Shown piece after piece: positions 7,301 through 62,152 of a stretch of DNA of 64,000 nucleotides. How positions within the stretch are numbered: position 1 is the stretch's first letter; each line of letters opens with the position of its first letter. The stretch comes from Escherichia phage JM10, in the sequence record PP400777. One strand, given 5' to 3'. A program made the position numbers and the translations under genes. A model generated the notes under the pieces. It was not told the DNA's origin. It did not search any database and saw only the letters and a list, made by a program, of their open reading frames with translations.

Positions 7301-7693
7301 CTACTTTTTAAAGGTTTTTTGCAAAAGTTTGATGATTTCGTCGACGTTGGTTTCATCTACGATACAATTGATTTTTGTTACACCTAAAGCTATACCTTCG
7401 TTAGTAGATTGAGGCTTTACTAAATCTACCTCAATAAAGTATTTGAACTCGTCAGGATAAATCTCAAAATAAGTTTCAATTTCACCACCGGCAGAACATA
7501 CAGTACCATCTTCCATAGTTACACTTACTACGTTTGACGTATCGCTATCATAATCAGGTTCCATTCCGTTTACAACAAAACTAGGCCCGTGGAGTTCAAT
7601 CAATTTTAACATCTTAGCGTTATTATGTGGTGCTTCTTGAACAAAGTCATCTTTAAATAAAGGGTTAATGATATAAGATTTTCCGATTTCCAT
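7301..7693 (-). CDS. Hypothetical protein (130 aa)
   Basis: ORF with SD GAGGAAA upstream and an early-promoter-like GTTTAC about 55 nt upstream. Confidence 0.5.
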   Translation of the reverse strand: MEIGKSYIINPLFKDDFVQEAPHNNAKMLKLIELHGPSFVVNGMEPDYDSDTSNVVSVTMEDGTVCSAGGEIETYFEIYPDEFKYFIEVDLVKPQSTNEGIALGVTKINCIVDETNVDEIIKLLQKTFKK

Positions 7694-7778
7694 TTTGATT
7701 TCCTCATGTTGTTGATAGGTTTATACTAACACATCCAGGGAAGAAGTAAACAACTTTTTCGGCAATTTACAGATACTC

Positions 7779-7800
7779 AAAAGGGAGACCGAAGTCTCCC
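7779..7800 (-). terminator. Rho-independent terminator after gene 32
   Basis: Perfect hairpin GGGAGAC-UUCG-GUCUCCC (minus-strand RNA) followed by a U-run, 7 nt after the gene 32 stop. Confidence 0.8.
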
Positions 7801-7806
7801 AATTTA

Positions 7807-8706
7807 TTATAGACCAGCTAACAGGTCATCGAGGTCGCCATCGTCAGAAGACGAGGAACTCATGAAGTCATCTTCAGTTTTTGCAGAACCAAAGGCTTCC
7901 ATGTCTTTATCAAAATCGTCAAGGTCAGAAGCAACTTTATCTGCAACAGAAGCTGCGGCAGCTGCTGCACCACCAAGAGCGGCAGTACCAAGAACTTGAT
8001 TAAATTTAGTATTCAATTCTTCAAACGATTTGAACTTATCTTTAGAAGTCATTTCAGAAAGGTCAACCATTTGTTCGAACAATTCTTTCTGGAAAGATTC
8101 ATCATCAATGTTTGGAATCGCAGATTGATTCAGGAATTTAGATTCGTCGTAGTTACTGAAACCAGAAACCTGTTTAACTTTCAGCACAAAGTTAGCACCT
8201 TCCCATGGGCAAGTTACATCAACTGGAGTTTCACCCATTTCAGTATCGACTGCAATCATTGCATTGATTTTGTCCCAAATCTTTTTACCGAAACGATATT
8301 TAAATACTTTACCTTCATTATCTGGAGCTTGTGGGTCTTTAACAACCAGAATATTAGCCCAATAAGAAGTTTTACGTTTCAGTTGAGAATATTCAGTTTT
8401 GTTGGTATTGTACAGGTCATTTTTACTAATGTACTGACATACAGGACAAGAGTCATAATCGCCGTGTGTAGATGAACAGGTTTCAATATACCATTTACCA
8501 TTTTTCTTGAACCCGTGGTTAACAAGAATTGTAAACGGAAGTGCGTCATCTGTTTTTGCCGGCAGGAAACGAATTACCGCTTGACCATTACCGGATGCAT
8601 CGAGTTTCAGCTTCCATTCACCTTTATCTTCTGAAGAGAAACCTTTGTTACCATTCAGTTTAGCCATCTGAGCTGCGAGGTCTGCGGTACTTTTACGTTT
8701 AAACAT
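7807..8706 (-). CDS. 32: Single-stranded DNA-binding protein gp32
   Basis: [49 protein letters not shown]..., acidic C-terminal tail; 299 aa. Confidence 0.95.
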
Positions 8707-11086: not shown

Positions 11087-14000
11087 ATGGCCGACATCAA
11101 ACGTAAGTTCAGAGCCGAAGACGGTCTGGACGCCGGTGGCGACAAGATTGTTAACGTAGCATTAGCCGACCGTACAGTAGGTACTGATGGCGTAAACGTT
11201 GACTTCCTGGTACAAGAAAACACCGTTCAAGTATATGATTCTACGCGTGGATATAACAAAGGATTTGTTGTTCTTTATGACAACCGTTTATATCAAGCAA
11301 TAAATGATATCGTGTCTCCTTCCGGGGCATTTAACCTTTTACAATGGCGTGCAGTTCGTACTGATGCACAATGGATAACTGTCGCTTCTGGGACTTATCA
11401 ACTTTCTTCAGGTGAATCGATTTCGGTTAACACTGGTGCCGGCAATGATATGGTTTTCACGTTGCCGAATACGCCGGTTGATGGTGATACTGTTGTTTTG
11501 GCTGATATTGGTGGAAGAACCGGGACAGTTAAAGTACAGATTAACGCGTCTGTGCAGAGTATTTTAAACTTTAGAGGTGAACAAGTTCGTACAGTTTTAA
11601 TGACGCGCCCACGTTCACAACTATTGTTTGTGTTTAGTAATCGTTTGTGGCAGATGTATATTATCGATTATGGTAAAGAATCAATCACTGTTACACCTGC
11701 GACACCATATCAAGCACAAGCAAATGATTTTATCGTTCGTCGTTTTACTAGTGCAGCACCAATCAACATTACACTTCCACGTAATGCTAACAATGGTGAT
11801 ATAATCCACCTAGTTGATTTAGATAAATTAAACCCACTGTATCATACAATTGTTAAAACATTTGATGATACAACGTCTATCGGTGAAGTCGGGACTCATA
11901 TTGCCGAAGGCAGAAATGACTCTGACGCGTTTTTTGTTTTTGATGCTGCAAATAGTTTATGGCGTATACGGGAAGGCGACCAGAAATCGCGTCTTCGTAT
12001 TATCCGTGCGGATTCAAATATTCGTCCAAATGAAGAAGTTCTTATTTTTGGCACAAATAACGCTACAACCGGAACTATTAATCTTACGCTGCCTTCTGGA
12101 ATTTTGAGTGGTGACACTGTTAAAATTTCAATGAACTACATGCGTAAAGGCCAAACAGTAAAAATTAAAGCTGCCGAAGGTGATACAATTGCTTCTTCTG
12201 TTGCATTGCTTCAGTTCCCTAAACGTTCTGAATATCCACCTGATGCTCAATGGGTCTCTGTTACTGAACTAGAATTCAATGGCACTACTTCATATGTTCC
12301 TGTATTAGAATTAGCGTATATCGAAGACACCGTTGCTGGTACACGTTATTGGGTTGTTCAACAAAACGTCCCGACTGTAGAACGTGTTGATGCTGGAACT
12401 GATGCTACACGAGCTCGTTTAGGTGTTATTGCTCTTGCTACTCAAGCGCAAGCAAATGTTGATTTAGAGAATACTCCAGCTAAAGAAGTGGCTATTACTC
12501 CTGAAACGTTGGCAAATCGTACAGCAACTGAAACTCGACGCGGTATCGCTAAAATTGCTACAACAGCACAAGTTAATCAGGATTCTACTGCAACATTTGT
12601 GGATGATACTATCGTTACGCCTAAGAAATTAAATGAGCGTACAGCGACTGAAACTCGTCGCGGTTTAGCAGAAATAGCTACTCAAGCAGAGACTGATGCT
12701 GGGACTGATGATACAACTATTATCACTCCTAAGAAATTACAGGCACGTCAGGGTTCAGAAACTCTGTCTGGTATAGTTAAATATGTATCGACTGCTTCAG
12801 CTACTCCTGCTGCTACTCGTGGAACTGCAGGCACTAACGTTTATAATAAAGACACAACTACGTTAACTATTTCGCCTAAAGCTCTCGATCAGTATAAAGC
12901 GACTTCTACTCAACAGGGTGCTACTATTCTGGCTCTTGAAAGTGAAGTAATTGCTGGTCAATCCCAAGCAGGTTATTCTCACGCTGTAGTAACTCCTGAA
13001 ACACTACATAAGAAAACTTCTACTGATGGACGTATTGGTTTAATTGAAATTGCTACGCAAGAAGAAACTAATGCTGGGACTGATTATACACGTGCAGTAA
13101 CGCCTAAGACGTTAAATGATAGGAAAGCTACGGAAGGATTATCCGGCATAGCCGAACTTGCTACGCAAGTTGAATTTGATACTGGAACTGACGATACTCG
13201 TATCTCAACTCCACTGAAAATTAAAACTCATTTTGATTCTTCTGACCGTACCAGTGTTAATTCTGATTCCGGACTTATTGAAGAAGGAACCTTGTGGAAC
13301 CATTATACTCTTGATATTTCTAAAGCAAATGAAACACAACGTGGCACACTTCGCGTAGCGACCCAGGCAGAATCTAATACAGGAACTTTAGATGATGTTC
13401 TTATTACTCCTAAAAAGCTTTTAGGGACTAAGTCCACTGAAACGTCTGAAGGCGTAATTAAGGTTGCTACTCAGGCTGAAACTGTAACAGGAACTTCTGC
13501 TAATACTGCTGTATCTCCAAAAAATTTAAAATGGATTGCGCAGAGTGAACCTACCTGGGCAGCTACTACTGCGATAAGAGGTTTTGTTAAAACTTCATTC
13601 GGTTCTATTACATTTGTTGGCGACGATACTCAAGGTAGTACACAGGACCTGAATCTTTACGAGAAAAATAGTTATGCTATTTCTCCATATGAATTAAATC
13701 GCGTATTAGCAAATTATTTGCCATTGAAAGCTAAAGCTGTAGATAGTAATTTATTAGATGGACTAGATTCATCTCAGTTCATTCGTAGGGATATTGCACA
13801 GACGGTTAATGGTTCACTAACCTTAACCCAACAAACGAATCTGAGTGCCCCTCTTGTATCATCTAGTACTGCTACGTTTGGTGGTTCAGTTTCGGCAAAT
13901 AGTACATTAACTATTTCTAACTCTGGAACAGCAACTCGTCTGATTTTTGAAAAAGGACCTCAAACTGGAACTAACCCAGCGCAGACGATGACTATCAGAG

Positions 14001-26222: not shown

Positions 26223-26298
26223 GCTAATTTCCTCAATTGATTAATGTTTTTGTAATCCATGAGAGCATTATACTCTGCTCTCAAGAGTTTGTACAATT

Positions 26299-26520
26299 TT
26301 ATTCGGCCATATCAGAACGTTCAAAAAGCTCTTCAACAGTTAAACATTCAGTGTCATCTTCAATAAAGAATCGAGTCCAACACGTTGGGGCGATACAGTT
26401 ATGAGTTTGTCCGGCGATAGAAGCTACACGAATAAGCTGCTGACCATTATTCAGAACAAATTTTTCACCAATTTCAACATCTTTAAAAAGCTTAGCCATT
26501 TTGTATTCCTCATGTTTCAA
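26299..26520 (-). CDS. Hypothetical small protein (73 aa)
   Basis: ORF between ndd and the rIIB-proximal genes. Confidence 0.45.
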   Translation of the reverse strand: MKHEEYKMAKLFKDVEIGEKFVLNNGQQLIRVASIAGQTHNCIAPTCWTRFFIEDDTECLTVEELFERSDMAE

Positions 26521-46806: not shown

Positions 46807-47466
46807 TTAACCTCGATTCATAAATGCATTAAATATTTGGTCATCAACAGAAATTTCTAATTCGACTTCAATTGCTTCAGCCTTTTCTTCAAGTGGTAAT
46901 TCGTATCCACACACTACAATTTTTTCATCGATATCAAAATATACAGAAGCAATACGATTAATGTTATTTTCAGTTAAGTCTAAATCAACATCAACATCTT
47001 TTTGACCTACACTTAAAGGATAACTAATACGGGTTATTTTATTATCTTTAACAAAGAGACCACCAACATACTCTGTACTACGTTTGAAGTTTACACGTTT
47101 CCGAAATGAAAGATATGAGGCATCTTTACCATGAGCCCTGCTCATAGGACATAATGAATAGCTAGAATAAGAGATGTCAAATCCTACACCTTCAATATGA
47201 GCCAACGCGCCATGATTAAACCAATTATAATCATATGCCAAATCCATTATATTGTAATATGTGAAAGGCACAGGATTAACATCATATGTTGTACCTTTAA
47301 AATCTGCCCAGGCAACGATTTCGTTATCTTTAACAATTACAAAAATTACACCAATATGGTATCCGTTATTATTTTCATTCGGCGTTATATTATAACATTG
47401 CGCATTAGGAAATTTACCATATTTAAATGGCGCATTTTTGTGCATATAATAAATCATATTATTCAC
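46807..47466 (-). CDS. Hypothetical protein (219 aa)
   Basis: ORF in the 61-41 cluster. Confidence 0.5.
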   Translation of the reverse strand: MNNMIYYMHKNAPFKYGKFPNAQCYNITPNENNNGYHIGVIFVIVKDNEIVAWADFKGTTYDVNPVPFTYYNIMDLAYDYNWFNHGALAHIEGVGFDISYSSYSLCPMSRAHGKDASYLSFRKRVNFKRSTEYVGGLFVKDNKITRISYPLSVGQKDVDVDLDLTENNINRIASVYFDIDEKIVVCGYELPLEEKAEAIEVELEISVDDQIFNAFMNRG

Positions 47467-47752
47467 CTGTGATTTCGGTTACGATATCTTTGTTATCGAA
47501 ATTAGGGTCACAATACAAAACATAGTTGTACTGCATGATACCGCCAGACTTAAGTTGTTCAACAACTTTATTAACCATATTAGGACGGTCTCGTTTAGTG
47601 ATGTTCATGATATCAGAGAAGATTTGTTGTTCAACATCTTCTTGATTTGCAGTCATTGACCACTCACAGAGGTCTTTATCATAACCTGCCGTAACTGGAG
47701 CCGGTGCACATGATACTGCAAGTAAGATTGCTGCCAATGATAACTTTTTCAT
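47459..47752 (-). CDS. sp: Spackle periplasmic protein (superinfection exclusion, lysozyme inhibitor)
   Basis: Signal peptide MKKLSLAAILLAVSCAPAPVTA then GYDKDLCEWSMTANQEDVEQQ...QLKSGGIMQYNYVLYCD; 97 aa. Confidence 0.8.
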   Translation of the reverse strand: MKKLSLAAILLAVSCAPAPVTAGYDKDLCEWSMTANQEDVEQQIFSDIMNITKRDRPNMVNKVVEQLKSGGIMQYNYVLYCDPNFDNKDIVTEITGE

Positions 47753-47811
47753 TTTAACTCCTTAGTTGATTTGATAGGACTACTATACTATAGTCCATCT
47801 ATAATGTAAAC
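47753..47811 (-). promoter_or_regulatory. Early promoter upstream of sp
   Basis: Minus GTTTAC - 18 nt - TATAGT, inverted repeat GGACUA/UAGUCC flanking the -10, AAGGAG SD. Confidence 0.55.
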
Positions 47812-47815
47812 AAGT

Positions 47816-48064
47816 TTATTCTTTTTCGCGAATAATAATTACTTGTTGAGGCTGCTGAGCAGATTTCTTTTCGGCAACGATAGACCAAATTAAAGTTCCA
47901 ATCCAACCAATCATCGTCCAGTTAAAGAGTAAAGATACAAAGAAGATTGCTGTTGTGCTTTTTGTGCCACGAATAAGTGCGATTACCCAAGGCAACATGT
48001 AAATGATGATTGAACCAATACCTGCGATTAAAACTGCTACTGAACTAGCTACGAATAATTCCAT
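47816..48064 (-). CDS. Small inner-membrane protein (82 aa), possible superinfection-immunity-type protein
   Basis: Two hydrophobic helices (LIAGIGSIIIYMLPWVIALI; IFFVSLLFNWTMIGWIGTLIWSIV); adjacent to sp. Confidence 0.5.
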   Translation of the reverse strand: MELFVASSVAVLIAGIGSIIIYMLPWVIALIRGTKSTTAIFFVSLLFNWTMIGWIGTLIWSIVAEKKSAQQPQQVIIIREKE

Positions 48065-48125
48065 GTTAATTTCCTCTTGATTTGTTATGTTTATAGTATC
48101 TTATTTTAACTTTGGTGTAAACCAA

Positions 48126-48494
48126 TTAATTAAATTTGTTTAAACGTTCAATACACTGGACGTAGTTATTCGCGATTTGTTTCTGGGTAGGCTCTTTACC
48201 AGTTGTTTCAACATAGCGAATGAATGCGATTTCAGTAGCCTGTAAGCAATGTTCTTTAACGCGTTGTTCTTTTGACAATGCTACAGTATCAGAGTCACGA
48301 TAACGTTGAGCATGGGCATCAGCTTGAATCATTCGATTACCTACAGTAACCGGGTCTTCCACTTCAACTTTAGGTTGTTCATATTGTTTAACATTCGGAT
48401 TGTAAATCAGTTGGCCAACGTTATTAGGAATAAAGCCATGGGCACCACATCCGGTTAATCCGAACACCATTGCTAAAGCGATTAATTTTTTCAT
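48126..48494 (-). CDS. Putative lipoprotein (122 aa)
   Basis: Signal peptide with lipobox MKKLIALAMVFGLTGC. Confidence 0.55.
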   Translation of the reverse strand: MKKLIALAMVFGLTGCGAHGFIPNNVGQLIYNPNVKQYEQPKVEVEDPVTVGNRMIQADAHAQRYRDSDTVALSKEQRVKEHCLQATEIAFIRYVETTGKEPTQKQIANNYVQCIERLNKFN

Positions 48495-53400: not shown

Positions 53401-54300
53401 TTATTCCTCGATTACGACATCTTCGTATTTAGGTATATTATACGGTGAAGAAATTAAAGCGTTAAAGTAGATGAACTCACCAAGACCTGGATGGAATACT
53501 TCTTCAGGATTTTCGAAATATTGAATCTTCGGACGTCCTTTAAGAATTTGATAGTACTCAGTTTTAGTTGGTTTAAAAATTCGAATCAACGCTTCTTCAG
53601 GATACTTATTTCTGTCGAAGCTATTATTTGGATCGGTTATATAAAGCGGTTGGCCTAATTGAATTGCACATTCAACCACTTGTTCAAAACGATAGCACGG
53701 GTCACTAATTCGAAATGGATGAAAAATACCATCTAGATGAATAGGAGCCAAATCACCTACAAGACGCTGCATGATGGAAGGACGTATAACTTTCTGCGTT
53801 ACGATAATCTTATTACCATCTGCACCTGCGTTAACCAGCACTTCTTTTTGACGTTCATTCAACACAGTAGTTTGAAGTGAACGATTAACCGACAACATAT
53901 CAGTTTTTAAGAATTCGTCAATATAAAAACGTGGTTTATTAGGGTCTGCAGTGATATTGAAATTGAATTCCACATCAAAAGCGCCGTCATATCCGGTGAT
54001 ATCTGTGATTAGAAAATCACAATCATAATAAGCAATTAATGAATCAACCACAAATTCATTTTCAGACCAGAAATATTTACGAGTGTTATACGCGTTATCT
54101 TTATACCATAATGGAACAAACTTAAATTCTGGGAAAAGACGTTCGCATTCTTTAATATCGGATGCATTACGTGGATATGTAATCACATCGCCTGGATTAG
54201 CACGGTGCAAATGAAGTTGGAAGTTGCCATCCTTAAGGATAGCATACTGTCCAGTTTCATAAGACCGCATACTCAAAATAGGTACGCGGAAAATAGCCAT
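53401..54300 (-). CDS. Hypothetical protein (299 aa) at the beta-glucosyltransferase locus; possible DNA-modification enzyme
   Basis: No recognisable catalytic motif by eye; ATGA-overlapped with gene 42; not similar to what I recall of T4 Bgt. Confidence 0.45.
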   Translation of the reverse strand: MAIFRVPILSMRSYETGQYAILKDGNFQLHLHRANPGDVITYPRNASDIKECERLFPEFKFVPLWYKDNAYNTRKYFWSENEFVVDSLIAYYDCDFLITDITGYDGAFDVEFNFNITADPNKPRFYIDEFLKTDMLSVNRSLQTTVLNERQKEVLVNAGADGNKIIVTQKVIRPSIMQRLVGDLAPIHLDGIFHPFRISDPCYRFEQVVECAIQLGQPLYITDPNNSFDRNKYPEEALIRIFKPTKTEYYQILKGRPKIQYFENPEEVFHPGLGEFIYFNALISSPYNIPKYEDVVIEE

Positions 54301-55016
54301 TAGTCAAGGAATCCTTTAACATAATCAAAATCACGTTCAAACACATGGGCACTTACCATGGTATGAGTATAATCACCAACTTCTACACCACATTCGTTAG
54401 CGATATAATGAAGTAATTTTCCTTGGAGATAAAAATCCAACTGCATAACAACAGCACAGTTCTGAGAACGCATATGACAGTGGGTATAAAGCTTACCATC
54501 ACGAATATAATAAGTCACTGAGTCAGTACATGGATATTCAAGCGTTTCGTCTGAATCAAGCAAAGCCTGATCAGAACTTTCTAGAATTTGGAACACAACT
54601 CTTCGAGAGTTAGGCTTCTCTTTAAGTTCTTTTAGAAGAGTTGGTAATTGGGCCGCAATGCGAGGACCATAGAAAGTGTTGAAGTTCGCCGGCAAAACAT
54701 CTGATTTTGGTTTAGAAATAAATTTAGCGACATTAGGATATGCCTTAAACGCTTCTTCTGCGTTGGTACCACCAGAAATCATAAACTTCCAGAAGTCTTC
54801 GGCATATTCATAAGAGATGCGGTTAATACGTGGGTCGGTCATTTTGAATGATGATGGAGTGTCAACAACTACTGTCATAGACCCAATTTCATTACAACGT
54901 CCAATACGAGAATCAGTTACGAATTCCGGGTTTTCTAAAATTTCACGATTGACTGCTTTAAATGCGGTTTGAAAATCTGCGGCTTTGATATATTTCATTG
55001 TGTTATGTTTTCCCAT
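54300..55016 (-). CDS. 42: dCMP hydroxymethylase gp42 (thymidylate-synthase fold)
   Basis: TS-family active-site pattern ...YPCTDSVTYYIRDGKLYTHCHMRSQNCAVVMQLDF (Cys nucleophile and RS.N segment); position between uvsX and 43 as in T4. Confidence 0.7.
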   Translation of the reverse strand: MGKHNTMKYIKAADFQTAFKAVNREILENPEFVTDSRIGRCNEIGSMTVVVDTPSSFKMTDPRINRISYEYAEDFWKFMISGGTNAEEAFKAYPNVAKFISKPKSDVLPANFNTFYGPRIAAQLPTLLKELKEKPNSRRVVFQILESSDQALLDSDETLEYPCTDSVTYYIRDGKLYTHCHMRSQNCAVVMQLDFYLQGKLLHYIANECGVEVGDYTHTMVSAHVFERDFDYVKGFLD

Positions 55017-56511: not shown

Positions 56512-56898
56512 TTATAGATTAGGTTTATATGATTTAAATGTTTCGAATTCGCCTTTATTCATAAGAGCTTTGAATTCGTCAGGACGCATAGCTTTGTCGT
56601 CGATAATCCAATCATATACTGGTTTATGTGTTAGCAAATTATGGTACTTCAAGCCAATGTTTGCCAAGTTCTGAATCAGACTTGGGAGAATGTCAATTGC
56701 TATACGTCCAGGACCTACTGACTTCATACCGCGAGCAGTGTAAAGCGTTATTGTATGCCCTGCATCATACAGAGCATTAATGGCAGACACCATTTCGACG
56801 TCTGGTTTGAAGTTCACGTAATCACGATTGTTATTCCACTCTGTTATACAATCATCGACATCAAAACAAAGATTAAGCATGTTTTCTACACGGTGCAT
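56512..56898 (-). CDS. HAD-superfamily phosphatase (small, about 128 aa)
   Basis: Motif I-like FDVDDCIT near the N-terminus, motif II TLYTARG, motif IV-like IIDDKAMRPDE; start taken at the ATG overlapping the upstream stop (TAATG) with GGGAA SD. Confidence 0.6.
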   Translation of the reverse strand: MHRVENMLNLCFDVDDCITEWNNNRDYVNFKPDVEMVSAINALYDAGHTITLYTARGMKSVGPGRIAIDILPSLIQNLANIGLKYHNLLTHKPVYDWIIDDKAMRPDEFKALMNKGEFETFKSYKPNL

Positions 56899-58583
56899 TA
56901 GATTCGTTCCCATTGATGAGTGATATCGCCACCGATTGGACGATAGGAAACACCAGTTTCTTTATCAGTTAGTACCCATTTACCAGGATTTTTTGTAATC
57001 AGAGTAGCCGTTACAGGTTCTGCTACGTCATAACTAATAGAGCCGTCCTGAAGTACACGGCCCATGTTACGTAATTGCTTAGTCAGAAGTTCCATACCTT
57101 TATAATATGCGGCTACCGCTTTAAGTGGATTATTCTTGAAATAACCACCTAATGCAATCCAGATAATTGCCACTGCCAAATGATGATACTCGTTAAACGA
57201 ACTCATCTTTCCATATTTGTAAACTAATGGATTGATGTTAATAGTCACATTACAAGTTGTTTCATCAATAGTAAACTGTCCCCAGGTCGGATTAGCATTG
57301 AATTCATCATAACCTGAAACAGCATAAAGCACTTTAGCTTCATCATACAATTTTGGCCCGTAAATCTTGGTTTCGCCAAAATATCCACGAGGGTCGATAA
57401 ACTTGACTTCGCCGTTATCAGTAATCATAGTATTACTGAAGTTCGGGTCACCGTGAATAACAGAGTACTGCCCCTGAGAACGGTTATGATAACGAATAAG
57501 GTGTTCTAAAGCTTGTTTCAGCATTGGCTTCAGACGTCCAATCTTAGTGTAGTTCACATGTGTGATTTTACCAAATGAATCAATCAATGGTTGAATGCTT
57601 TCACAACGATCAATAACTTTCGTATAGAATTCTTTAGTGAAATCACGACGAACAGTTTCAGGACTTACAAAATAAGTGTCTGTGCTGAATTTCAGTGCAT
57701 CTAAAATTGCATCAACAATTTGTGGACGAGCAAGACTTGATTTGGATTTAATATATTCAAATGCCGGCTTACCTTTAATGCGTTCCATTTCAAAGTTATT
57801 TTCATTAACAGAAACTAACTGAGGAACTGAATCTGATTTCACTTTAAGATACCATGAAATCTCATCTTTCTGAAGAGCTCGACCTTGTTCAGTTAATGCG
57901 AATTTAGTTACAGTTTCTTCACCAATTTCAACTGCATTAAAACTACGATTAAGTTCACGAACTTCATGAGCTTTTTCAAGTTTAGGCATATCACCTAAAT
58001 CAATTATATTCATAAGCTCTGATTTATTGAATGCGCCGCTGTAAAGGAATTCTACAAAATCACGTCCTTTGCAGTATTCATGAATTTCCTCATCGGTAGA
58101 ACCCATATAGAATTCCCAGTCTTTGAACTGATAAATTCCTACAACATTACCACCTGTTGAACCTACGTTAGTGATATTTTCACCGTCGAAATTATAGCGA
58201 CATTCGTCACCCTTAACATAGATTGCGTTGACATTCCAAGACCATGAACCAAAATCAGGAATAATATCGCACCAGTTAACAATTACGTTATGGCCATCTA
58301 AATCTTTGTGTAATTTAGCAAGAGCATAAGCAGATCCGTATGCTTCATCAACTGTACGAATAGTCACATTGAACCCTTCTTGCTCACAATAAGCTCGAAC
58401 AGTTTCAGCAAATTTTGAATGAACTACTACAATAATTTCATCTGCGCCAAGGTCAGAATAAATTGTATACAAATTGCTCAGAATAGTGTCTTGTTTATAG
58501 TTAACAAGCACCTTAGGAATATGATGCGTTATTGGATACAAACGAGTTGCCAGTCCAGCACCAAGAATAACAGCTTTTTTCAT
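56898..58583 (-). CDS. Bifunctional sugar-1-phosphate nucleotidyltransferase (RmlA/GalU-like) / APH-fold sugar 1-kinase
   Basis: N-terminus MKKAVILGAGLATRLYPITHHIPKVLV matches the G-x-G-T-R-L signature of sugar-1-P nucleotidyltransferases; C-terminal VIHGDPNFSNTMITDNGEVKFIDPRGYFGE matches the HGD...N / D-x-E motifs of aminoglycoside/choline/anomeric-sugar kinases; 561 aa. Confidence 0.7.
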   Translation of the reverse strand: MKKAVILGAGLATRLYPITHHIPKVLVNYKQDTILSNLYTIYSDLGADEIIVVVHSKFAETVRAYCEQEGFNVTIRTVDEAYGSAYALAKLHKDLDGHNVIVNWCDIIPDFGSWSWNVNAIYVKGDECRYNFDGENITNVGSTGGNVVGIYQFKDWEFYMGSTDEEIHEYCKGRDFVEFLYSGAFNKSELMNIIDLGDMPKLEKAHEVRELNRSFNAVEIGEETVTKFALTEQGRALQKDEISWYLKVKSDSVPQLVSVNENNFEMERIKGKPAFEYIKSKSSLARPQIVDAILDALKFSTDTYFVSPETVRRDFTKEFYTKVIDRCESIQPLIDSFGKITHVNYTKIGRLKPMLKQALEHLIRYHNRSQGQYSVIHGDPNFSNTMITDNGEVKFIDPRGYFGETKIYGPKLYDEAKVLYAVSGYDEFNANPTWGQFTIDETTCNVTININPLVYKYGKMSSFNEYHHLAVAIIWIALGGYFKNNPLKAVAAYYKGMELLTKQLRNMGRVLQDGSISYDVAEPVTATLITKNPGKWVLTDKETGVSYRPIGGDITHQWERI

Positions 58584-58624
58584 GTTGTGGTCCTCATTGG
58601 TAAGTAGGAGTATTGTACACTATT

Positions 58625-58768
58625 CTAGTTAAAGCATTCATACTTCGCTTGTAGTCCAATCATAATCCATCCGATTATAAGAGTCGGAACCATTACTGGA
58701 GCCGTTAAGCTCCAGTAGATAGTCATGACAAGCATCAATAGTAAAAGTCCTATTGTTATTGCTTTCAT
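58625..58768 (-). CDS. Small membrane protein (47 aa), not in ORF track
   Basis: MKAITIGLLLLMLVMTIYWSLTAPVMVPTLIIGWIMIGLQAKYECFN; start overlaps the SIS gene stop (ATGA). Confidence 0.45.
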   Translation of the reverse strand: MKAITIGLLLLMLVMTIYWSLTAPVMVPTLIIGWIMIGLQAKYECFN

Positions 58769-59400
58769 TGCTCGCCTCGTAACATGGCACCTAGTGCACC
58801 GCCTGGATGGAACTTAAGGAAGTCATTAGAGGTAAATCCACGTTCAGACGAAAGGTTGATAGCAAACGTATCGATAAGCGCTAACAACAATGTAGTGGAC
58901 ATAGTCGGAGCCAGAGAATTCTCATCAACCTCTACTGCGATGCCTGTACAGAACGTATAATCAAAAAGAGCTTCGTATTCTTGTGGAATGTCAGGGTTAC
59001 AATGTAACAGAATCTGTTTAACCTGAGGACGAATCATACGAAGATGTTTAGCAACACCTATCATTTCTTCAGTCTTACCAGAACGACTGATGTGAACTAA
59101 TACATCATTAGGTGCAATAAATCCTGCGTCACCATGAGAATAATGCCCGGTGTTCAAATACATGCTAGGAATACCGAGTGAAGCAAAAGTCTCGGAAGCT
59201 TTAGTTGCGATATTAGCATTCTTACCAACACCTGTAATAATTACTCGGCTTTCATAATTACTAAGTCCCGGGCGTCGAAGAGTTTCTAGAATAGCATTAT
59301 AACGAGCAGGGTTTTGACTAATTACTTTGGCCATAGCGGCCAAAGAAGAAGCTTGTTTTATGATTGCGTCAATAGCGATAGTAATAGGAGTAGTTTTCAT
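58765..59400 (-). CDS. Arabinose-5-phosphate isomerase-like SIS-domain protein (KdsD/KpsF N-terminal domain, no CBS pair)
   Basis: SRVIITGVGKNANIATKASETFASLGIPSMYLNTGHYSHGDAGFIAPNDVLVHISRSGKTEEM and ...LAPTMSTT...FHPGGALG align motif-by-motif with the KdsD SIS domain as I recall it (GKVVVMGMGKSGHIG..ATFASTGTPSFF..HGDLGM..DVVIAISNSGESSE ... APTSSTT ... SHPGGALG); 211 aa. Confidence 0.75.
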   Translation of the reverse strand: MKTTPITIAIDAIIKQASSLAAMAKVISQNPARYNAILETLRRPGLSNYESRVIITGVGKNANIATKASETFASLGIPSMYLNTGHYSHGDAGFIAPNDVLVHISRSGKTEEMIGVAKHLRMIRPQVKQILLHCNPDIPQEYEALFDYTFCTGIAVEVDENSLAPTMSTTLLLALIDTFAINLSSERGFTSNDFLKFHPGGALGAMLRGEQ

Positions 59401-59440
59401 ATTTCTCTCATTTAATTAGTTTACCGTCCATGACATTATA

Positions 59441-62152
59441 TCAAAAATCGAACATATCGAACAGAGATGCTTTCTTCTCGTAATCGAGTTTCGCTGCTGA
59501 TGTGAATCCTTCAAGTGGTTTAATAAATGTCTTCTCAAGGAGAACAGTGTAGTCCATCCAATGAAGTACGTCGTCTTTAATTAAATCTGTGATTTCAGTG
59601 CCAGAAGGCCATGCGATACATTTATCACCGAATGGGTTTCCTTCACGTAAAGGCAGAACATATACTTTTTCACCTTCTACAACTTGCGGTGCATCGATAT
59701 TACCTTTGATAGCCCGGTTATACGTCAGAATTCCACGAATATGGAACGGGCATTTGGGACCAGGGAATCCACCGACATCATATTTAGCAATGTTATTCGC
59801 AGAAGATACCGACGCGATGCTAATATAATTCAATTGACGGAATTCTTTTTCAAACTCTTTAAAATATTCTTGTAATGATTCTTCACCTTCTTGAAGCATA
59901 CGACGAATACATTCTTTAAGAGCTTTCTGTACTGCTTTAGGGGTCGAAGATTTCTGAGTCTCTAGACCCATGATTTTGAGTTTAGGCTCAGCGTAACGAG
60001 TGCCTTCCATATCCCACACGTTTAATGCATAACGTTTCTTACCAGTCCAGAATCCACCAATACCTTTAGAACCGAGCGGAGGACCAGCGATAGCTTCTCG
60101 GTCCATGAACATTAAGTGTTGTTTATTGTTCATGTATTCACACATTTCACGGAAACCTCTATCAATAGCAGGTTCCATACGTTCACGAGCGAACTTATCT
60201 AAGAAGTCTACCCAATGGTTGGTATCACGGAATTTAGATTCACCAACCTTATCGATAATTTTATCAGCAGATACGTAAATAGAGTCTGTATCACCATAAA
60301 GAACGAAAGCTTCACCTTCTGTACCACAAACTTCATTCAGATATTCATTAACTTTACGTTCAATCCACTGTAAAGCCATTTGCCCGAATGTTGTGATTGC
60401 AGTAGCATTACGCAAATCATAATAACGGAACCAAACGTTTCCAAGTGCACCATAAAGCGAGTTGATGAGCAATTTACGGTTAATCTGTGCAGTCATACCT
60501 GCAACTTCAGTACGTTGAGCTCTAAACAACATTTCATTAAGAGATTTAGCAGACAACTTTTTAATCTTTTCTTTAATCTCAACGCTGAAGTCGAAACGAT
60601 AATCAACATCTAACGGTTCGTCAACAGAAAGATTAGGATTATGCAATGCCTCTTTAATTATTTCACCATTACGTTGAGCTGCAAGCATGTAACCTTTATG
60701 TTCTTTACGTTGATTAAAGACCTTAGTGATTTCAGTTGGAACTACACCATCACGGTCTTTATAATACATCATGCCGTTAGGAGAACAACTGTACACATCT
60801 GAAGGACGTTCAGCGATTGCGTTAATATAATCATGCAGTGGAGCTACTTTAAACGTTCCTGCTATTGTTTCCGGGCTAATATTCACTTGGCGAATAATAC
60901 TTGGATACAGAGATGTAAGGTCGAAACTCATTACATATTTGTATCGATTTGGAATAGGTTCCTTAACAAAAGCGCCAGGATAAGGTTGAACTGGGTGAGA
61001 ACGACCTTGTGGAATCACCTTGTTCTGTTCTTTAAGGCTATTAAAAATAATAGCATCCCATGTTTTAATTGGGCTAAACACAGATTGAATCTGTATCTTA
61101 GCATAATAACCCATGTCCAAACTCAAGTTGATGAACTGACGCTTAGCATCAATTTGCAATACACGATACACGTCGATAATGTTATAAGAAATATATCGTT
61201 GGTGATTGCTTTCACGAAGCTTAGAAATAGGGCCGTCATATTTCAGTTTACCAACGTTCAATTCAAATTCTGAAATGTAATCCAGAGAATACGACGGTTG
61301 ATTGGTAAAAGAGAATTTTTTGTAAAGGTCAATGTAATCAAGAACAGAGATACCGAACAATGTAATGATTTCACGAGAACCATACATGTTTTCGATAACT
61401 TTAACACGAGTTTTACGATGTGGTGATAAACGTTTCGCAGTAGATTCGCCAAAAATATTCTTGATTCGGTTATACACATATGGAATATCAAATGACTCAA
61501 CGTTCCATCCAGTCAAAATGACAGGAGTTTTCTGTTGCCAGAAGTTGAGATATTCCATCAACAATTCTTTTTCGTTATCGAACGGCATATAAATGATTTT
61601 ATCAATAATTTCGGATGGAACTTCATCACCGCCTTGTTCTTGAAGCTTAGCCGCAATTTCGATAGACCATTCTTCTACATTACCATACGGAGAATTCAAT
61701 AGATCAAATACGTAGAACCTGTCGTCAATTGAGTCATAATGGGTGATAGCATCAATCGGATGTTTTGCTTGTGACGGCTCAGGGAACCCATCCGGAGATG
61801 TTACTTCGATGTCGAAGTTAGCCACACGAATTTTTGTATGGTCGTATTTGATTTCATAGTTATAAGTGTCAGACAAATACGCCAATTTGAAATCGTCCAT
61901 GCCAAGTGCTTCAAGTCCGATATCTTCCATGCGTTTAATCCATTGGGAGGCATCACGCATATTAGCGAACAACTTACGAGTACACGGCTTACCGTAGATA
62001 TCGAAATATTTCGTAGCCTGACTTTCTGGACAATGAGCAAACAGTGATGGTTTATATTCTACTTCACGAGTACGTTCACGGCCATTAGAATCGATGTAAC
62101 GTTCAAAAATTGAATCACCAATCTGTTCAACCGTTAAGTAAAATTCTTTCAT
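59441..62152 (-). CDS. 43: DNA polymerase gp43 (family B)
   Basis: 903 aa; exo motifs FDIEV and YNIIDV, pol motifs SLYPSII and YGDTDS; N-terminal sequence matches what I recall of the RB69 polymerase. Confidence 0.97.
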   Translation of the reverse strand: MKEFYLTVEQIGDSIFERYIDSNGRERTREVEYKPSLFAHCPESQATKYFDIYGKPCTRKLFANMRDASQWIKRMEDIGLEALGMDDFKLAYLSDTYNYEIKYDHTKIRVANFDIEVTSPDGFPEPSQAKHPIDAITHYDSIDDRFYVFDLLNSPYGNVEEWSIEIAAKLQEQGGDEVPSEIIDKIIYMPFDNEKELLMEYLNFWQQKTPVILTGWNVESFDIPYVYNRIKNIFGESTAKRLSPHRKTRVKVIENMYGSREIITLFGISVLDYIDLYKKFSFTNQPSYSLDYISEFELNVGKLKYDGPISKLRESNHQRYISYNIIDVYRVLQIDAKRQFINLSLDMGYYAKIQIQSVFSPIKTWDAIIFNSLKEQNKVIPQGRSHPVQPYPGAFVKEPIPNRYKYVMSFDLTSLYPSIIRQVNISPETIAGTFKVAPLHDYINAIAERPSDVYSCSPNGMMYYKDRDGVVPTEITKVFNQRKEHKGYMLAAQRNGEIIKEALHNPNLSVDEPLDVDYRFDFSVEIKEKIKKLSAKSLNEMLFRAQRTEVAGMTAQINRKLLINSLYGALGNVWFRYYDLRNATAITTFGQMALQWIERKVNEYLNEVCGTEGEAFVLYGDTDSIYVSADKIIDKVGESKFRDTNHWVDFLDKFARERMEPAIDRGFREMCEYMNNKQHLMFMDREAIAGPPLGSKGIGGFWTGKKRYALNVWDMEGTRYAEPKLKIMGLETQKSSTPKAVQKALKECIRRMLQEGEESLQEYFKEFEKEFRQLNYISIASVSSANNIAKYDVGGFPGPKCPFHIRGILTYNRAIKGNIDAPQVVEGEKVYVLPLREGNPFGDKCIAWPSGTEITDLIKDDVLHWMDYTVLLEKTFIKPLEGFTSAAKLDYEKKASLFDMFDF

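Follow-up and report, generated by a model that had tools for sequence, protein, structure and literature searches.

The window, a stretch of 64,000 nucleotides from Escherichia phage JM10 (sequence record PP400777), represents an RB69-like T-even phage of the Mosigvirus group, with regA, 62, 44, 43 (DNA polymerase), uvsX and 41 among the nearby genes. On its minus strand, a short open reading frame (called the small ORF here) of 47 codons plus stop occupies positions 58625..58768, starts with ATG and translates into MKAITIGLLLLMLVMTIYWSLTAPVMVPTLIIGWIMIGLQAKYECFN. The upstream neighbour (58765..59400, minus strand) encodes a SIS-domain arabinose-5-phosphate isomerase (API) of 211 amino acids, which matches the Pfam SIS family and is homologous to gp55 of RB69, its role being taken from PMC13326640. 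The downstream neighbour (56898..58583, minus strand) encodes a bifunctional nucleotidyltransferase/kinase (NTPK) of 561 amino acids with Pfam NTP_transferase and kinase-like regions, homologous to gp52:53 of RB69 (PMC6024577, PMC13326640); its start at 58583 lies 41 nucleotides past the stop codon of the small ORF. The plus-strand letters TCAT at 58765-58768 correspond to ATGA on the minus strand, in which the ATG of the small ORF (58768-58766) and the TGA of the API gene (58767-58765) overlap. Inside the API gene, 6 nucleotides 5' of this ATG, a GAGG Shine-Dalgarno-like motif is found (58775..58778, minus strand).

The coordinates and sequence of the 47-codon frame between the SIS and nucleotidyltransferase-kinase genes are thus those given in the original prediction, and the overlap of its ATG with the SIS stop can be read directly from the sequence. 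The same prediction described the ORF as unlisted; this holds for the list of ORFs used there, which had a cut-off of 60 amino acids, but not for the GenBank records of close relatives, which already give the ORF as a CDS. When 601 bases around the small ORF were searched, 153 phage records matched at 90% identity or more, the top match being Escherichia phage HY126 with 99.0%.

Conservation of the small ORF

At the local base composition, a frame of 47 codons remains open by chance with a probability of about 0.03 per frame, and spurious ORFs of 30-60 amino acids occur in the region by the dozen, so that the open frame is by itself weak evidence for a gene. The comparison was therefore based on a set of 30 T4-like loci including this window, with 24 distinct sequences, taken from GenBank phages and IMG/VR contigs and spanning Mosigvirus, Tequatrovirus, Gaprivervirus, Tegunavirus, Kanagawavirus, Winklervirus, Mosugukvirus and VR5-like phages. 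The small ORF is intact in all 30 loci, with a length of 45-49 amino acids; conservation in related phages, the lack of which would have counted against the ORF according to the original prediction, was accordingly found throughout the set. Its frame is open in each of the 24 distinct sequences, while any one of the other five frames is open in none to three of them.

The variation within the frame also follows the pattern expected of codons, decreasing in the order third, first and second position, with entropies of 0.80, 0.42 and 1.17 bits at positions 1, 2 and 3, respectively. For moderately diverged pairs (pS 0.1-0.35), Nei-Gojobori dN/dS values of approximately 0.05-0.23 were obtained. 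Ten residues, M1, K2, Y18, P24, M26, P28, T29, W34, Q40 and C45, are invariant in an alignment of eight sequences from six genera, from which two 46-residue forms lacking K2 (L019 and L022) were left out. The product from the window shares 43-64% identity with its counterparts from other genera, somewhat less than the two enzymes on either side do (API 66-75%, NTPK 65-73%). A chance ORF is ruled out by this conservation, the openness specific to one frame and the low dN/dS, and the small ORF is, by these comparative measures, a genuine protein-coding gene under purifying selection.

Relationship to gene 42.1 of T4

The protein encoded by the small ORF matched phrog_3610, a family listed as of unknown function, with an E-value of 1e-26, its residues 1-47 aligning with positions 1-47 of the 47-position profile. 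Database proteins 94-98% identical to it carry the precomputed Pfam assignment PF26865 (Phage_T4_Y02C); a Pfam search of the protein itself returned no domain in the local Pfam copy, which probably lacks PF26865. The homologue in T4 is an intact ORF of 49 amino acids at 26227..26376 (minus strand), situated between imm and gene 42, which also matches phrog_3610. The two proteins aligned by BLASTP with an E-value of 6e-14 and 57% identity over 30 residues, and tblastn of the small ORF against T4 gave 52% identity over 46 residues. The T4 reference record NC_000866 contains no annotation of this 49-residue ORF. Its ATG overlaps the stop codon of imm as ATGA, and its own stop lies 7 nucleotides ahead of the ATG of gene 42.

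Several related phages carry the gene in their records under various names. It is annotated as a hypothetical protein in HY126 (XAN60480.1) and F2 (YP_010068829.1). The RB69 record gives it as RB69ORF054c, for which a shorter start is used and the note reads 'similar to T4 42-imm intercistronic region', whereas the VR7 record names its homologue 42.1, 'similar to bacteriophage T4 gp42.1'. The small ORF is thus already catalogued as a gene in related phages and its novelty is low. A literature search on the T4 42.1/Y02C family and on T4 small proteins found no study of it, and ORF054c receives no mention in the two papers on RB69 arabinosylation (PMC6024577, PMC13326640).

With tblastn, homologues were found in 774 phage records, nearly all of them from phages of enterobacterial hosts. 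An exhaustive HMMER search of 1.84 billion representative proteins yielded four matches and no bacterial relative, and a word-indexed protein search found three near-identical relatives. One of the four HMMER matches, a 481-residue protein with nine short matched stretches, was judged to be a spurious hydrophobic match. On the strength of these matches, the small ORF is the RB69-group orthologue of T-even 42.1 (T4 Y02C; PF26865; phrog_3610; RB69ORF054c; VR7 gp42.1), and the 42.1 family is, as far as the searched databases extend, restricted to T4-like phages.

The orthologues of the window and of T4 share Y18, the P-x-M-x-P-T motif, W34, Q40 and C45 as well as the length class of 45-49 residues. 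Both genes are located downstream of gene 43, overlap the upstream gene by ATGA and contain what appears to be a middle promoter serving the gene that follows. They differ in their upstream partner, which is the isomerase gene in the window and imm in T4, and in the gene that follows, i.e. NTPK after 41 nucleotides in the window and gene 42 after 7 nucleotides in T4. Furthermore, the embedded promoter is situated at the 3' end of the ORF in the window but in its 5' half in T4.

Gene order downstream of the DNA polymerase gene

In all 30 loci the small ORF lies in the interval downstream of gene 43, although the arrangement of this interval varies between the lineages. Gene 43 is followed in T4 by imm.1, imm, the small ORF and gene 42, and in VR7 by imm, the small ORF, imm.1 and uvsX. 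The VR5-like phages have imm, the small ORF, imm.1, NTPK, HAD and a 42-like gene in this order. In X20, PEi26 and PM2 the order is imm.1, API, small ORF, NTPK, HAD, U32 and a 42-like gene, and in TG1 and Mosigvirus, including the window, API directly follows gene 43 and precedes the small ORF and NTPK. All 30 loci share the ATGA junction, with imm as well as with API in the upstream position, and these two genes are unrelated to each other. Judged from this alignment of gene orders, the isomerase gene of the arabinosylating lineages occupies the exact slot of T4 imm, and the small ORF follows that slot.

A member of the imm.1 family flanks the small ORF in most of the other genera. To this family, phrog_1754, belong Imm.1 of both T4 and the window, VR7 ORF049 and, in PEi26, X20 and PM2, the gene upstream of API, and a lipoprotein-type signal is present at the start of the four sequences read (VR7, X20, T4 and the window). 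Gene 42.1 belongs to a recurring trio of envelope-type genes consisting of the imm.1 lipoprotein gene, imm and 42.1 itself.

Relation to Imm

In the original prediction, the small ORF was considered a possible remnant or analogue of a superinfection-immunity function, on the ground that the corresponding interval of T4 encodes the small membrane protein Imm. The gene order of T4 bears out that the interval between genes 43 and 42 holds imm, and the synteny with this interval is real in so far as API occupies the imm slot with the small ORF next to it; the small ORF itself, however, is not Imm. The genuine imm of the window is a full-length gene at 47816..48064 (minus strand), 10 kb away from the small ORF, and its product shares 65% identity with T4 Imm (E 2.5e-31). 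Together with imm.1 (48126..48494, minus strand; phrog_1754, with a lipoprotein-type signal) it adjoins sp (spackle), as is the case in RB69. The comparison with T4 Imm that had been recommended gave no significant similarity (E 0.08 over 17 residues in a single pairwise BLASTP), the small ORF matching phrog_3610 and showing no match to phrog_1039, the Imm family, at E ≤ 0.1. T4, moreover, carries both genes side by side. Since a true imm is present elsewhere in the window and the small ORF belongs to another family, its reading as a remnant of imm is excluded.

An Imm-like function, in which the small ORF product would keep a superinfecting phage from injecting its DNA, could still be imagined, because the two proteins have several properties in common. 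T4 Imm, like the small ORF product, is small and very hydrophobic, and it is made early by the phage and resides in the inner membrane. Imm is also the ancestral neighbour of 42.1, with which it is translationally overlapped in T4-, VR7- and VR5-type genomes. When the Imm motifs (Y-x-L-P-W ... A-L-x-R-G ... L-L-x-x-W-x-x-I-G-W) were sought in the small-ORF alignment, the tripeptide I-G-W was the only element common to both. On the other hand, Imm is longer (82-83 residues as against 47) and far more widespread, occurring also in non-T4 phages that lack the small ORF, and the two genes are found independently of each other. Thus, imm occurs without the small ORF in L039 and L040, in which it runs directly into gene 42, and in L048, a VR5-type locus that has lost the small ORF only. 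Conversely, among 20 IMG/VR contigs with the small ORF, 9, including TG1, PM2 and X20- and PEi-like contigs, gave no Imm match in a scan with two peptide patterns, in which the lack of imm means that none was detected. For TG1 and X20 the check covered the two canonical imm positions, and imm was found at neither. The persistence of the small ORF where imm is undetected weakens a specific link to Imm, and the presence/absence pattern of the two genes rules out an obligate Imm partnership. Taken as a whole, the proposal that the small ORF is a degenerate imm, or that its product functions in the manner of Imm, is regarded as improbable.

Independence from the sugar pathway

The position of the small ORF within a block of sugar genes raises the question of whether it is a part of the arabinosylation module, for instance by anchoring the isomerase and the nucleotidyltransferase-kinase to the membrane or by serving them as a scaffold. 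Its place and its overlap between API and the NTPK gene are indeed kept in five genera, and in those genomes the small ORF is presumably expressed from the same operon-like array as the two enzymes. In the current model for RB69 the modification is arabinosylated 5-hydroxycytosine, and the pathway described needs only gp51, gp52:53 and gp55, which were assigned to NDP-arabinose synthesis, gp54 being given no role; AfhE and AfhF of HY126 were reported to make UDP-arabinose (PMC13326640). No enzymatic domain was detected in the small ORF by the Pfam search. The gene is, furthermore, present in T4-type and VR7-type loci that have none of API, NTPK, HAD and U32. T4 glucosylates its DNA and possesses the small ORF, and VR7 has retained it in an interval devoid of gene 42 and of the sugar genes, the genus of the latter phage, Gaprivervirus, being reported to possess none of the enzymes known for non-canonical bases. 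In the VR5-type phages, imm.1 even separates the small ORF from the NTPK gene.

A role in the arabinosylation module is in view of these occurrences very improbable. The small ORF is tied neither to imm nor to gene 42 and the sugar genes, as it occurs with and without each of them; although situated inside a sugar gene block, it is neither a sugar-pathway enzyme nor an obligate partner of Imm.

Putative embedded middle promoter and possible translational coupling

The 3' end of the small ORF coincides with a site resembling a MotA-type middle promoter (58612..58636, minus strand), with the elements TGCTTTA and TACAAT separated by 12 bp and a predicted transcription start near 58605. The final codons TGC TTT AAC (Cys45-Phe46-Asn47) make up the putative MotA box, and TACAAT lies in the spacer between the two genes. 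The consensus derived from 58 middle promoters of T4 is (a/t)(a/t)(a/t)TGCTTtA, followed after 12 +/- 1 bp by a TAtaaT -10 element (PMC2988021). The site of the window, gaaTGCTTTA-12 bp-TACAAT, matches this consensus, the -10 element conforming to TAnnnT; in box, spacer and -10 element it is the same as the MotA/AsiA middle promoters of T4, the difference being that the box of the window doubles as codons for Cys-Phe-Asn. The window contains 15 sites with the composite MotA/-10 pattern, as compared with 1.9 expected, and 11 of the 15 are on the transcribed minus strand. A scan of 58300..59600 for sigma-70 promoters and terminators detected no promoter on the minus strand and no terminators. 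A spacer RNA hairpin, which is strong in TG1 and PEi26, is absent from the window and was thus discarded as a part of the locus.

The pattern TGCTT(T/C)A-12-TACAAT recurs at the same position of the ORF throughout the RB69-type loci, with PM2 (TGaTATAAT at this place) as the sole exception. Loci in which the small ORF is directly adjoined by the next gene lack the pattern, Cys45 being encoded by TGT in all but one of those sequences, and it is also absent in the VR7 and VR5 types. In T4, the start of the middle promoter P42 has been mapped to position 26320 (PMC2988021, Table 1), which falls within the 49-residue ORF, 7 nucleotides downstream of TGCTTTT-12 bp-TATAAT. The promoter elements cover nucleotides 26-50 of the ORF in T4, whereas they begin at nucleotide 133 in the RB69 type. 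In both the T4 and the RB69-type lineages the small ORF hence appears to host a middle promoter for the gene after it, the promoter of the window being assigned by its match to the consensus. The full small ORF is predicted to be translatable only from transcripts that start upstream.

It could be argued from this arrangement that the peptide is unimportant and that the region is kept as a promoter, or as a spacer that holds ribosomes for coupling or against polarity. A MotA-type promoter lies within the ORF in T4, where it is mapped, as well as in the RB69-type phages, the ATGA overlap is invariant, and the gene is dispensable in some lineages. The amino acid sequence, however, is kept throughout, although the promoter differs in position or is missing altogether, and this conservation of the peptide regardless of where the promoter sits argues against a promoter as the only reason for it. 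The codon-position variation and the dN/dS values far below 1 likewise speak for selection on the protein. The invariant residues Y18, P24, M26, P28, T29, W34 and Q40 are outside the promoter elements, and even Cys45, which overlaps the box in the window, is preserved as TGT in most sequences without a MotA box. A role solely in cis is consequently unlikely to account for the small ORF.

With respect to translation, the strength of the Shine-Dalgarno sequence varies among the relatives, while ATGA is constant in the 30 loci, a combination that fits coupling to the upstream cistron by termination and reinitiation. Overlaps of this type occur frequently in these compact genomes, and the overlap alone is for this reason no proof of functional coupling. 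The small ORF may be produced early or in the middle period of infection as the last cistron of a message extending from gene 43 through API, and its translation would then proceed by reinitiation at the ATGA overlap, helped by the GAGG motif.

Protein features and predicted membrane topology

The original prediction of a membrane-type protein is supported by composition, since 64% of the residues of the small-ORF product are apolar and its GRAVY value amounts to 1.36 (overall range of values 1.36-1.57). Two apolar runs, at approximately residues 3-19 and 25-40, are parted by Y-W-S-L-T-A-P, and the invariant prolines 24 and 28 belong to the presumed turn motif P-x-M-x-P-T. Charged residues are confined to the ends: the N-terminal end contributes K2, and the conserved tail Q-A-K-Y-E-C-F-N contributes K42 and E44. 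The AF2 model, calculated from an alignment of four near-identical sequences, consists of one continuous helix with pLDDT 90 and pTM 0.46, which supports the helical character of the protein, though not a hairpin. As the apolar stretch of 37 residues is too long for one membrane span, we infer that the product is a helical hairpin of 45-49 residues in the inner membrane with its turn at P-x-M-x-P-T. By the positive-inside rule, the N-terminal lysine and the C-terminal tail Q-x-K-Y-x-C-F-N probably face the cytoplasm.

Possible function

Natural losses of the small ORF in L039, L040 and L048 indicate that it is dispensable. Its composition, its presumed early or middle expression and its persistent linkage to the genes of the Imm.1 lipoprotein and Imm point to the cell envelope. 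On balance, we judge it slightly better than even that the small ORF is a 42.1 orthologue encoding an accessory envelope protein, with the form of an inner-membrane hairpin and with translation coupled by reinitiation. Its more precise assignment as an accessory, dispensable inner-membrane factor, acting in superinfection exclusion, in membrane protection or as a modulator of a larger membrane protein, is tentative and may be called possible rather than probable.

Bacteria possess small inner-membrane regulators of fewer than 50 amino acids, such as AcrZ, MgrB and MgtS, which bind larger membrane proteins and most of which have a single transmembrane segment. The small ORF product resembles them in its size class, its hydrophobic helical character and the lack of an enzymatic domain, but differs in having two apolar segments, in being encoded by a phage and in showing no homology to them. 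It might accordingly regulate a host inner-membrane protein, e.g. a transporter, protease, sensor kinase or secretion component, instead of acting in superinfection exclusion. Apart from size and composition, such a role would agree with the conserved polar residues Q40, K42 and C45, which could form a specific interface, and with the family being largely confined to phages of enterobacterial hosts. The search of 1.84 billion representative proteins, however, revealed no homology to any bacterial small protein, and the neighbourhood points to phage envelope genes and not to a host pathway; regulation of a host protein is thus doubtful.

A more specific form of the accessory envelope function would make 42.1 the third component, beside Imm.1 and Imm, of a T-even envelope-defence cassette located downstream of the DNA polymerase gene. 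From its place at the inner membrane, 42.1 would in such a cassette counter the DNA of incoming phages or protect the membrane of the infected cell, and it would have been retained even where a sugar-pathway gene replaced imm. This proposal is speculative, and we consider it rather unlikely as it stands.

The present analysis corrects the misreading of the small ORF as a relic of imm, the actual imm being elsewhere in the window, and presents 42.1 as a conserved small gene of membrane type which is found in hundreds of T-even genomes and is missing from the T4 reference NC_000866. The locus also illustrates how a sugar-pathway gene has apparently been slotted into the position of imm with the ATGA junction preserved. 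For the engineering of these phages it is relevant that a deletion of the small ORF would remove the predicted middle promoter of the downstream gene. Should 42.1 indeed encode a factor of the envelope or of superinfection, the classic T4 system would gain a component, and if the three genes do form a defence cassette, this would provide a function for a gene missing from the T4 reference annotation.

The small ORF (58625–58768, minus strand) has an intact counterpart in T4, a 49-aa ORF on the minus strand (26227–26376 of NC_000866, corresponding to 2228–2377 of the T4 locus L003), which is unannotated in that reference record though it is the eponym of the Pfam family PF26865 (Phage_T4_Y02C). 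The middle promoter P42 of T4, mapped with its start at 26320, is located inside this 49-aa ORF. In the window, a MotA-type middle-promoter-like site (TGCTTTA-12 bp-TACAAT; 58612–58636, minus strand) is found at the 3′ end of the small ORF, whose three final codons make up the MotA box; the predicted start lies at about 58605, and the ATG of the nucleotidyltransferase-kinase gene follows 22 nt further on. The MotA-type site is kept, at an unchanged position within the ORF, in TG1, PEi26, X20 and several IMG/VR contigs. The spacer 3′ of the small ORF also holds, in TG1 (L006, 5133–5191; z −6.0) and PEi26 (L007, 5121–5182; z −3.0), a strong RNA/DNA hairpin, ATGGTAC-N7-GTACCAT, overlapping the −10 element; X20 has a weak hairpin here, and the spacer in the window has none (z +0.5).

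The genes imm.1, imm and sp (spackle) of the window are 10 kb away from the small ORF (47459–48494, minus strand), where envelope-targeted genes are gathered into one cluster, whereas in T4 imm.1 and imm are found between genes 43 and 42. ‘Hypothetical’ genes belonging to the Imm.1 family (phrog_1754) adjoin the small ORF or the arabinose-5-phosphate isomerase gene in VR7 (L004, 4153–4656), PEi26 (L007, 3870–4379), X20 (L008, 3914–4333) and PM2 (L009, 3825–4352). The Imm.1-family members whose sequences were read directly, those of VR7, X20, T4 and the window, carry the lipoprotein signal L-x-G-C at their N-terminus, and Imm.1 appears to be a lipoprotein; the label ‘iduronate sulfatase’ given to it in the T4 record looks wrong.

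Two genes that are whole in the window are divided in the RB69 GenBank record (L005), i.e. the 561-aa gene at 56898–58583 (ORF052c/053c, 11095–12781) and the 299-aa gene at 53401–54300 (ORF046c/047c, 7598–8498), both splits being reported as RB69 sequencing errors (PMC6024577, PMC13326640). The product of the gene 42-like gene of the thymidylate-synthase family (54300–55016, minus strand) shares only about 25% identity with that of T4 gene 42. Since its RB69 homolog is reported to yield 5-hydroxy-dCMP, not 5-hydroxymethyl-dCMP (PMC13326640), the name hmC ‘sugar module’ for this gene block of the window is outdated.

The small ORF is missing from three otherwise syntenic T4-like genomes: in L039 and L040, imm occupies 1501–1746 and gene 42 starts from 1746, and in L048 imm ends at 1707, with an imm.1-like gene from 1720. 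These natural losses show that the small ORF is dispensable, and the three genomes may serve as natural controls.
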